DNA of 64,000 bases, from assembly GCF_017348835.2 (NCBI RefSeq), contig NZ_CP071375.1; one strand, 5' to 3'. This DNA is from Escherichia coli (lineage in GTDB: Bacteria; Pseudomonadota; Gammaproteobacteria; Enterobacterales; Enterobacteriaceae). Position 1 is the first letter of the stretch. Every line of letters starts with the position of its first letter. Of the stretch, positions 14,901 to 17,900 are shown piece after piece. Position numbers: made by a program.

Positions 14901-17900
14901 GGCGCGTTGGTATGAAAACGCAGGCTCTGGCTGACGATATCGTTACTTAATGGCGCGGAAAGCCACACCGGCGTGTCGTTATCGGCCAGCGTCAGCAGCA
15001 CGCTGGTGGTGGCGATATTCAGCGGCTGCCAGCCGCGTTTGAGCTGATGCAGGGCGACAATCACGCCCGGCTCGCTCATGGCCTTTAACAGGCGACGAAA
15101 ACTGTGCTGGGCATCCTGCACAGGAAGCATAAAAGCGGTTTCCAGGGTCATGCGTTGTCTCCGCGAACCATCGTAAAGAAGTCGACCCGGCTGGCGTTCA
15201 CTTCGGCCTGGCGTGCGGCAATGCGTGCCATACGGTCAGCGTCCAGCGGGGCAATAAGGGTTTCTGATAAGTTTTGAAAGTGGCGAGATTGCTGCATCAG
15301 CGCGTCGATCAGCGCGCAGCGTTCGGCGTGCTGTTTGTCGCGCCCCAGCACCCAGCTGTAGCCGAGCGTGCCGTCAGTCAGGCGTACTGCGGCGCGGGTA
15401 AGCGTGGCGTCGCCGGCAAAAAAGCGTTCGCCGGTGCCGCCCATCCGCGCCTGAATCTGTACCAGGCCAGTTTCAGCGGCGCGGATCACCTCATAGTCGG
15501 CGGTGATGTTCAGCGCGTTCAGGCAGGCTGCCAGTTCTGCCGGTTGGCTGTGTGCCAGTACGGACATCCAGTGCTGGCGGGTCGCGGTATCTGCGTGCAT
15601 TCAGTGCTCCATAGTAAATTCAATCATGTCGGCGCGCGTCAGGCTGACGGAGTACTCCGCCGGGCTGCTTTCACCGTCACGGTGGTTAAGGGTGCGCACG
15701 CACAGCAGCGGCGACATATTCGGGATTTCAAGACGCTGGCACTCTTTGGCCTGGGCGCGGCGGGCGCTGATCCGCGTCTGGCTGCGGCGCAGTGCAATCC
15801 CCGTTTGCTCGCGCAGAAAATCGTGCAGCGAGCCGCTGTCGAAGCGTTGCAGCGTCGGCCAGAGGGTGAGGTCCGCGAAGTAGTGGTCGATTAAACAGAG
15901 CGCGACGCCGTTGACCCGGCGCAGGGTGCGCAGGTGGATAACGTTCTCGCCCTCGGCGATACCCAGCGCGTCTGCCACGTGACCGGAGGCCGGGCGCAGC
16001 ACAGACAGCAGTTTTTCGCTGGTGGGATGGCTCCCCTGATCCAGCAGGTTCTGGCTAAAACGCGCCTGGGCGTTGAGCGGGTAATCGAACGGGCGCATCA
16101 GCACCAGCACGCCGACGCCCTGACGGCGCTGTACCCAGCCTTTTTCCACCAGTTGGTCGATGGCGCGGCGCAGGGTGTGGCGGTTCACCTCAAAGCGCGC
16201 TGCCAGTTGCTGCTCGGCGGGAAGATAGTCGCCGCAGCGGTAGTGTTGACGAAGCTCCTGCTCAAGTTTTGCGGCTATCTCCTGATAGCGTGTTGGGTAG
16301 CTGGTCGGATGTGTAGACAAGTGCATAGATATCAATGCCTCGCTTATCAGATAAAGTGCTTACGCAACCGTTGAGAGAGGAAATCCAGCAGGCTGACCGT
16401 GACGATAATCAGCACCATCAGGGCGCAGGTTTGCTGGAACTGGAAACCGCGAATCGCTTCCCACAGGGTGACGCCGATCCCGCCCGCGCCGACCATGCCG
16501 ACGACGGTCGCCGAGCGGACGTTGGATTCGAAGCGATAGAGGGAGTAGGAGATCAGCAGCGGCATCACCTGTGGCAGCACGCCGTAGAGGATCTCTTCCA
16601 GCTTGTTAGCGCCGGTGGCGCGAATGCCTTCCACCGGGCCGGGTTCGATCGCTTCCACCGCTTCAGAAAGCAGTTTGGAGAGCACGCCGGTGGTGTGGAT
16701 AAACAGCGCCAGCACGCCAGCGAACGGGCCGAGGCCGACGGCGACCACGAACAGCATGGCGAAGACCATTTCGTTAATGGCGCGGCAGGCGTCCATCAGG
16801 CGGCGAACGGGCTGGTAAACCCACCACGGCACCAGGTTTTCGGCGCTCATCAGGCCGAAGGGGATGGAGAGAACCACCGCCAGCGCGGTGCCCCAGACGG
16901 CGATTTGCAGCGTGACGAGCATTTCGGTGAGGTAATCCTGCCACTGGCTGAAATCAGGCGGGAAGAAGTCGGCGGCGAAAGTCGCCATGTTGCCGCCGTC
17001 TTTAATCAGCGTGAGCGGGGCCATTTCCGCGCCCTGCCACGAGACGACCAACACGGCGAGAACAATGGCCCAGCTCAGAAGCGAGAACCAGCTGCGCTTG
17101 GGTGGGGCGATGGTGATGGTTTGCATGTTTGGCTCCGGTCTGTAGGCCGGATAAGGTGCTTGCACCGCATCCGGCATCAACGCCTGCACATTGTCGGATG
17201 CGACGCCGGGGCGTCTTATCCGACCTACGATTTACTGCACCGCTTTACTCACCGAACTCATCGCGCTTAAAGCGTTGTTCAGGCGGTCCAGGTCATCCAG
17301 CTGCGCCTGAATCTCGGTGGTTTTTGCCAGCTTGTCCTGCTCATTCAGTCCTTTATTGCTTTTCACGCCCTGCATCTCTTTAAACAGCGCGAGCTGGCGA
17401 ATCGGCACCAGTTGCAGGTCGCTGGAAGCGCGGAACGGCGCCCAGCCCAGGCGTTCCAGCACCGCTTTTTCTTCCGGCGTTTTGCCGTAGTTCATAAAGA
17501 AGTCGTAGATCTTGTCTTTGGTGGTTTCGGAAAGGTTTTTACGCCAGACGATCGGATCGCCTGGGATCAGCGGCGACTTCCAGATCACTTTCAGTTCTTT
17601 CAACTTCTCCGGCGCGGAGGTTTTCAGCTTGTCGAGGTTTTCGGTGTTGTTAGTGGCAACATCCACCTGCTTGTTGGCGACGGCCAGCGCGTTGGTTTCA
17701 TGCCCGGCGTTGACGGTGCGCTTGAAGTCGCTGGCGGAGATATTGTTTTTGGCGAAGACGTAGTAGCCGGGGACGAGGAAGCCAGAGGTGGAGTTAGGAT
17801 CGCCATTGCCGAAGGTGAGATCTTTCCGCTTCGCCAGCAGATCGTTCAGGTTGTTGATCGGACTGTCTTTGTTGACGATCAACACGCTCCAGTAACCCGG

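Follow-up and report, generated by a model that had tools for sequence, protein, structure and literature searches.

A two-copy, in-frame phnE allele within an open-frame phn operon of Escherichia coli

Introduction

The roles assigned to the proteins encoded by phnC, phnD and phnE, the first three genes of the C-P lyase operon phnCDEFGHIJKLMNOP of Escherichia coli, come from family knowledge and from earlier work (PMC6469041). On this assignment PhnCDE would form a binding-protein-dependent ABC importer for phosphonate (and phosphate), in which PhnD would bind the substrate, PhnE would serve as the membrane channel and be coupled to PhnC through its EAA loop, and PhnC would hydrolyse ATP. The phnE gene of K-12 is cryptic (Makino 1991 and Iqbal 2004, as cited in PMC6469041). 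Reversion to phnE+ consists of the loss of one 8-bp unit, GCTGGCGT, the phosphonate/phosphate transport system of E. coli is active once phnE has reverted, and the intact gene is regarded as the wild-type state (PMC6469041). Switching within one strain has been reported for K-12 in literature cited by the same paper. Further along the operon, phnI encodes a part of the catalytic core whose His328/His333 zinc site is essential (PMC9947105).

Here the phn locus is described in a stretch of 64,000 nucleotides of E. coli contig NZ_CP071375.1 (assembly GCF_017348835.2), hereafter called the window, to which all positions refer unless another record is named. A sequence-only reading of this stretch had proposed that phnE is intact, that the operon looks complete and that phosphonate uptake is probably functional. 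The phnE frame, its repeat, its neighbours and its relatives in other genomes were compared with those of K-12 and E. coli B.

Results

The phnE reading frame and its family

The window differs by 1 mismatch from the corresponding 64 kb of E. coli PE164, a pig isolate (NZ_CP114128.1, 4513450..4577449, reverse complement), and the public annotation of PE164 therefore applies to it directly. The phnE coordinates proposed from sequence were exact, being those of the RefSeq coding sequence of PE164, where the gene is labelled intact; the strand, which had been left unstated, is minus (Table 1). The reverse complement of this interval translates into 259 codons and a stop, beginning with ATG (MQTITIAPP) and ending with TGA after RKHFI, with no internal stop codons. 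Translation and alignment with the functional PhnE of E. coli B agree that the frame is unbroken, as had been claimed, and the alignment revealed neither an internal stop nor a frameshift (257 of 259 residues identical, no gaps). Both PE164 and a second E. coli genome, F2_81, have an annotated phnE with exactly this sequence (100% identity).

Table 1 Positions of the phn genes, repeats and associated elements in the window.
Feature	Position	Strand	Remark
yjdN-phnC spacer with phn promoter region	19062..19192	-	~130 nt
phnC, ATPase subunit, 262 aa	18273..19061	-	intact; NF007438, 596 bits
phnD, periplasmic phosphonate-binding protein, 338 aa	17232..18248	-	intact; 99.7% to K-12 over full length; TIGR03431, 376 bits
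REP/BIME element, phnD-phnE spacer	17145..17225	+	Rfam naRNA4 (REP-derived), 69 bits
phnE, phosphonate ABC transporter permease	16347..17126	-	780 nt, 259 aa; intact two-repeat (ON) allele
Two tandem 8-nt copies, GCTGGCGT GCTGGCGC (8-mer GCTGGCGT/C)	16706..16721	-	ORF nt 406-421; slippage site, triplicated in K-12
Two 9-nt direct repeats CCACCGGCG, 75 nt apart	16685..16693 and 16610..16618 (span 16610..16693)	-	flank the code for the EAA loop
phnF	15601..16326	-	intact frame
phnG	15148..15600	-	intact frame
phnH	14567..15151	-	intact frame
phnI	13509..14567	-	open frame
6-nt in-frame deletion in phnI, GCGATGGCGATGGCG to GCGATGGCG	13710..13718	-	one copy of a 6-nt repeat gone
phnJ	12671..13516	-	intact frame
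phnK	11916..12674	-	intact frame
phnL	11125..11805	-	intact frame
phnM	9992..11128	-	intact frame
phnN	9435..9992	-	intact frame
phnO	9014..9448	-	intact frame
phnP	8254..9012	-	intact frame

The ATG at 17126, preceded at a distance of 7 nt by GGAG, is the preferred start codon. A longer start, annotated in K-12 (b4583) 17 codons or 51 nt upstream, was rejected; it falls inside the REP/BIME element of the phnD-phnE spacer and outside the family model. The predicted protein scored 312.4 bits against the NCBIfam equivalog TIGR01097 (cutoff 216.7), with residues 16-258 covering positions 8-251 of the 252 in the model, and residues 88-258 matched the permease domain PF00528 with 91.8 bits. The EAA coupling loop is present and identical to that of E. 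coli B. Across the family alignment the stretch encoded by the 8-nt repeat hardly varies; the one difference is a conservative L/M exchange. A search of solved structures with PhnE matched only distant MetI-type permeases. Directly upstream of phnE, and in the same orientation, lie its cognate partners phnC and phnD, each with a score over its equivalog cutoff.

The 8-nt repeat and its distribution

The repeat that in K-12 MG1655 reads GCTGGCGT GCTGGCGT GCTGGCGC is GCTGGCGT GCTGGCGC in the window. Alignment with K-12 phnE, which the sequence-only reading had suggested as a way of locating the duplication, showed this 8-nt unit to be the sole indel, all other differences being scattered substitutions. 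Read from the ATG of the window, K-12 phnE is out of frame from about residue 140 onwards and reaches a stop once 189 codons have been read, so that the EAA loop and the C-terminal helices of PhnE are both lost. When the number of copies was varied in silico, the frame was kept only by 2 or 5 copies, and the simulated alleles with 1, 3 or 4 copies all acquired premature stops.

Two copies of the unit thus keep the frame (ON), while an allele with four copies, or with three like that of K-12, is shifted after about residue 140 and loses the C-terminal transmembrane helices together with the EAA loop (OFF). Slipped-strand mispairing alters the copy number and thereby makes phnE the reversible switch that is known at this locus. 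The phnE of the window is in the ON phase, and its two copies would retain the ability to switch.

The frequencies of the alleles were estimated from complete-genome records. The two-copy query (from the window, 74 nt) matched 3,245 records at 95% identity or above and about 1,003 with a gap, and the three-copy query (from K-12, 82 nt) matched 1,013 at 95% or above and 3,853 with an 8-nt gap; these counts are BLAST identity bands obtained with short queries, are approximate, and miss roughly 10-20% of genomes. About four fifths of the matching complete-genome records have two copies and about one fifth have three. The three-copy records that were sampled include K-12 derivatives as well as isolates from crow, pigs, sheep, chickens and humans or patients; the three-copy phnE of one strain, RM10410, is labelled 'frameshifted' in RefSeq. 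Four copies were found in the urine isolate VR50 (locus L007, 630..661), whose phnE is likewise annotated as frameshifted, so that natural phnE alleles have 2, 3 or 4 copies. The 8-bp lesion attributed to K-12 is really there, and it extends beyond K-12 laboratory strains, about 1,000 complete-genome records, wild isolates among them, having it. The two-copy phnE is the ordinary, majority wild-type allele and was already known as such.

A second pair of repeats flanks the code for the EAA loop. In other E. coli the 75 nt between the two CCACCGGCG repeats are deleted, giving a PhnE of 234 aa, or duplicated, giving 284 aa; the phnE of the window has neither the 75-nt deletion nor the 75-nt duplication at these repeats. 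The deletion junction occurs in at least five complete genomes (hits H226-H230). The 234-aa PhnE lacks the EAA loop and is still annotated as an intact permease of the 'PhnE/PtxC family'. E. coli PhnE proteins of 241 aa and 224 aa also occur.

The remaining phn genes, the promoter region and other loci

In each of the 13 other phn genes an ATG opens a frame that is a multiple of 3 nt long and runs uninterrupted to its stop codon. Their products align end to end with the K-12 proteins at 95-100% identity and match the expected family models, and for phnF-phnP (8254..16326, minus) full-length tblastn matches of 97-100% to the K-12 proteins were obtained. The gene order phnCDEFGHIJKLMNOP on one strand is the annotated order in PE164, F2_81, K-12 and BL21. 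The intactness claimed for phnC and phnD is borne out by full-length K-12 matches and by scores above the equivalog cutoffs. As for the 14-gene operon that was said to look complete, 14 open frames stand in the expected order, but PhnI is 2 residues short within a segment of conserved length.

PhnC has 95% amino-acid identity to K-12; its 13 substitutions cluster at residues 9-90 and leave the Walker A, signature and Walker B motifs as they are in K-12. The 5' half of the gene (18650..19200) is a rare divergent allele, matched at 99% or above by only 2 records (PE164 and one other), at 95-99% by about 400 and at 90-95% by 4,996. A divergent 5' half beside a promoter identical to that of K-12 suggests import by recombination.

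The approximately 130 nt 5' of phnC, which we take to be where the phn promoter was mapped in K-12 and B, are identical to those of K-12 and BL21 outside the stem of the yjdN terminator, where a single base is missing and another is substituted. A scan for sigma-70 consensus promoters upstream of phnC found none, a result that says nothing about a PhoB-dependent promoter, which is expected to lack a sigma-70 consensus.

Several further differences surround the operon. The yjdN-yjdM interval (19702..20581) holds a tandem 100-nt REP/BIME unit in 8.8 copies, compared with 5.8 in K-12, and nine Rfam naRNA4 matches (REP325 locus) fall within 19701..20578. This array varies in copy number and holds most of the few differences between the window and F2_81. 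On the other side, the yjdP-phnP interval of K-12 (L001, 2211..2306) is about 96 nt longer than that of the window (8216..8257), which may reflect a REP-type insertion. Beyond it, rpiB survives as a remnant of 105 aa (7496..7813, plus), alsRBACEK is absent, and yjcS (5258..7255, minus) adjoins the remnant, unlike the arrangement in K-12. The arginine decarboxylase gene adiA (32455..34724, minus) is broken up into a pair of ORFs (33474..34724 and 32455..33477) and is labelled 'frameshifted' in the RefSeq annotation of PE164; the break is either a real loss of this enzyme of arginine-dependent acid resistance or an assembly error. An island-like stretch next to cadCBA, at about 56900..64000 and known from the annotation of PE164 (4513450..4520500), contains genes encoding one protein with an EspG domain and one with an SdiA-regulated domain, fragments of IS256 and other transposases, and CP4-type prophage remnants (cbeA, DUF957, DUF4942).

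A private deletion in phnI

The phnI gene of the window is 1,059 nt long against the normal 1,065. The 6-nt in-frame deletion converts SERKAMAMALVD to SERKAMALVD, so that KAMAMAL becomes KAMAL and one AM dipeptide is gone. The protein is otherwise close to K-12 PhnI (350/354 identical) and carries L347P (K-12 numbering) in common with F2_81. KAMAMAL was found in 11 out of 11 Enterobacterales PhnI sequences. The motif FG-x-x-E-x-K-A-I-A-M-A-x-x-D occurs with the same spacing in 27 of 30 more distant representatives of the PhnI family (34-58% identity), and the other three look garbled there. The deletion shortens the interval from Glu to Asp, two near-invariant residues of this motif whose spacing is the same in K-12 and in the 11 Enterobacterales sequences.

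The deletion is absent from all the other 5,377 of the 5,378 matching complete-genome E. coli records. A further 67 records at 95-99% were considered as possible carriers and rejected as partial alignments; only PE164 spans the query without a 6-nt gap. Over 18.7 kb, F2_81 differs from the window only by the phnI deletion and by three changes in the REP array, and it has the same RefSeq protein accessions for every phn gene but phnI. Because the deletion is missing from the other records and from the nearly identical F2_81, it is either a recent change private to this strain or a fault of the assembly. As separate observations on length, many E. coli PhnI entries (P0029, P0033-P0038 and others) have 329 aa, and one that was aligned (P0035) shows a 25-residue internal deletion of LLANGEAPTLTTADSEQQPSPHVFS in a variable region of PhnI, a further in-frame length variant.

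Alternative readings of the locus

The alternative that survives best is that the operon is complete on paper only: uptake would work, and C-P cleavage would be lost through damage done by the PhnI deletion to the PhnGHIJ core. We consider this quite possible, although we lean against it. The deletion falls within a segment whose length does not vary in the family, it is private, being found neither in any other matching record nor in the sister genome F2_81, and PhnI belongs to the catalytic core with its essential His328/His333 zinc site (PMC9947105). Against this, the loss takes away one of two adjacent AM dipeptides and thereby preserves the local sequence of PhnI, and the zinc-binding His328 and His333, together with His219 (as in PMC9947105), are all present, as are all other conserved residues. 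An AlphaFold model (pLDDT 87), built with 32 diverse sequences, puts the deleted site where a loop passes into a helix (residues 278-285) and not in mid-helix, although models of this kind are insensitive to small deletions. If the reading of an impaired C-P lyase were true, the strain would be phosphonate-negative by a route other than that of K-12.

An extension of this idea, which we think unlikely, is that phn contains several independent short-repeat mutation hot spots and that different lineages have been silenced by different slippage events, this strain being phnE-ON but hit in phnI. The hot spots may comprise the phnE 8-nt repeat, the phnE 9-nt repeats (75 nt) and the phnI 6-nt repeat. 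If true, the combination of an ON phnE with a damaged phnI would be a cryptic state missed by frame checks and annotation alike.

It appears very improbable that errors of sequencing or assembly at a short tandem repeat created the two-copy state of phnE or the deletion in phnI, and that the real strain differs. Both sites are short tandem repeats, at which assembly and polishing errors can arise, and adiA is frameshifted in the same assembly, so the record contains some errors or real pseudogenes. However, F2_81, assembled independently and from a different continent (Australia, against China for PE164), has exactly the same phnE sequence, which makes an artefact at this repeat unlikely; two copies are the majority state of phnE, and indels of 6 or 8 nt are atypical as homopolymer errors. 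Finally, the plus-strand ORF 16335..17270 (311 aa), antisense to phnE and longer than it, has a negligible chance of being a real gene and was rejected, since it has no Pfam match, the minus-strand product opposite it is full-length PhnE, and it is called in none of the genome annotations compared (K-12, PE164, BL21 and F2_81), long antisense ORFs being frequent opposite G+C-rich genes.

Discussion

The phnE of the window is read here as the canonical in-frame two-copy allele within an open-frame phn operon, from which a working PhnCDE importer would be expected; we assign this reading a probability of about 0.9. The expectation of a working importer is drawn from the fact that all 14 frames are open and that the region upstream of phnC is as in K-12 and B. 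Under phosphate starvation, we infer, the operon would be expressed and the importer would transport its substrates. PhnCDE uptake is thus probably functional, as the sequence-only reading had supposed. The unusual phnC allele, with its 13 amino-acid differences from K-12, counts somewhat against this prediction, although no catalytic motif is affected. The PhnI deletion has no bearing on PhnCDE uptake, and from sequence the C-P lyase activity of the strain cannot be assumed. If the deletion impairs catabolism, uptake would be intact and growth on phosphonates could nevertheless be abolished.

Published work covers the operon, its repeat switch and the lesion of K-12; the intact phnE is already in RefSeq, and the phnE result matters little beyond correct annotation. 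Two points extend past this locus. The phnE lesion of K-12 is not peculiar to the laboratory, about one fifth of the matching complete E. coli records having three copies. An open frame is not proof of function, as illustrated by the private deletion in PhnI and by the few E. coli in which an in-frame phnE without the EAA loop goes unflagged. Predictions of phosphonate use from a genome should accordingly include inspection of the phnE 8-nt site, the phnE 75-nt site and the phnI site.

Compared with known systems, the locus is an E. coli phnCDEFGHIJKLMNOP C-P lyase operon; its fourteen genes keep the known order and orientation, and their proteins are 95-100% identical to those of K-12. With respect to the structures of PhnGHIJ(KL) (4XB6, 7Z15-7Z19), the PhnI of the window aligns over its full length to the solved PhnI chain but is without the A-M that is present in that chain and in every other sequence examined. 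The cryptic K-12 phnE (pseudogene b4583) occupies the same locus with about 97% nucleotide identity and has the repeat unit at the same place; K-12 has 3 copies and is out of frame, whereas the window has 2 copies and is in frame. The closest counterpart is the PhnE of E. coli B/BL21 (WP_001193500.1), a strain that is reportedly a phosphonate user. Both proteins have 259 aa, the same start and 2 repeat copies, and both genes have the same neighbours, phnD and phnF. The two proteins differ by two conservative substitutions, V21I and A70L, at positions where the PhnE of other genera has Ile (21) and Leu, Ile or Val (70).
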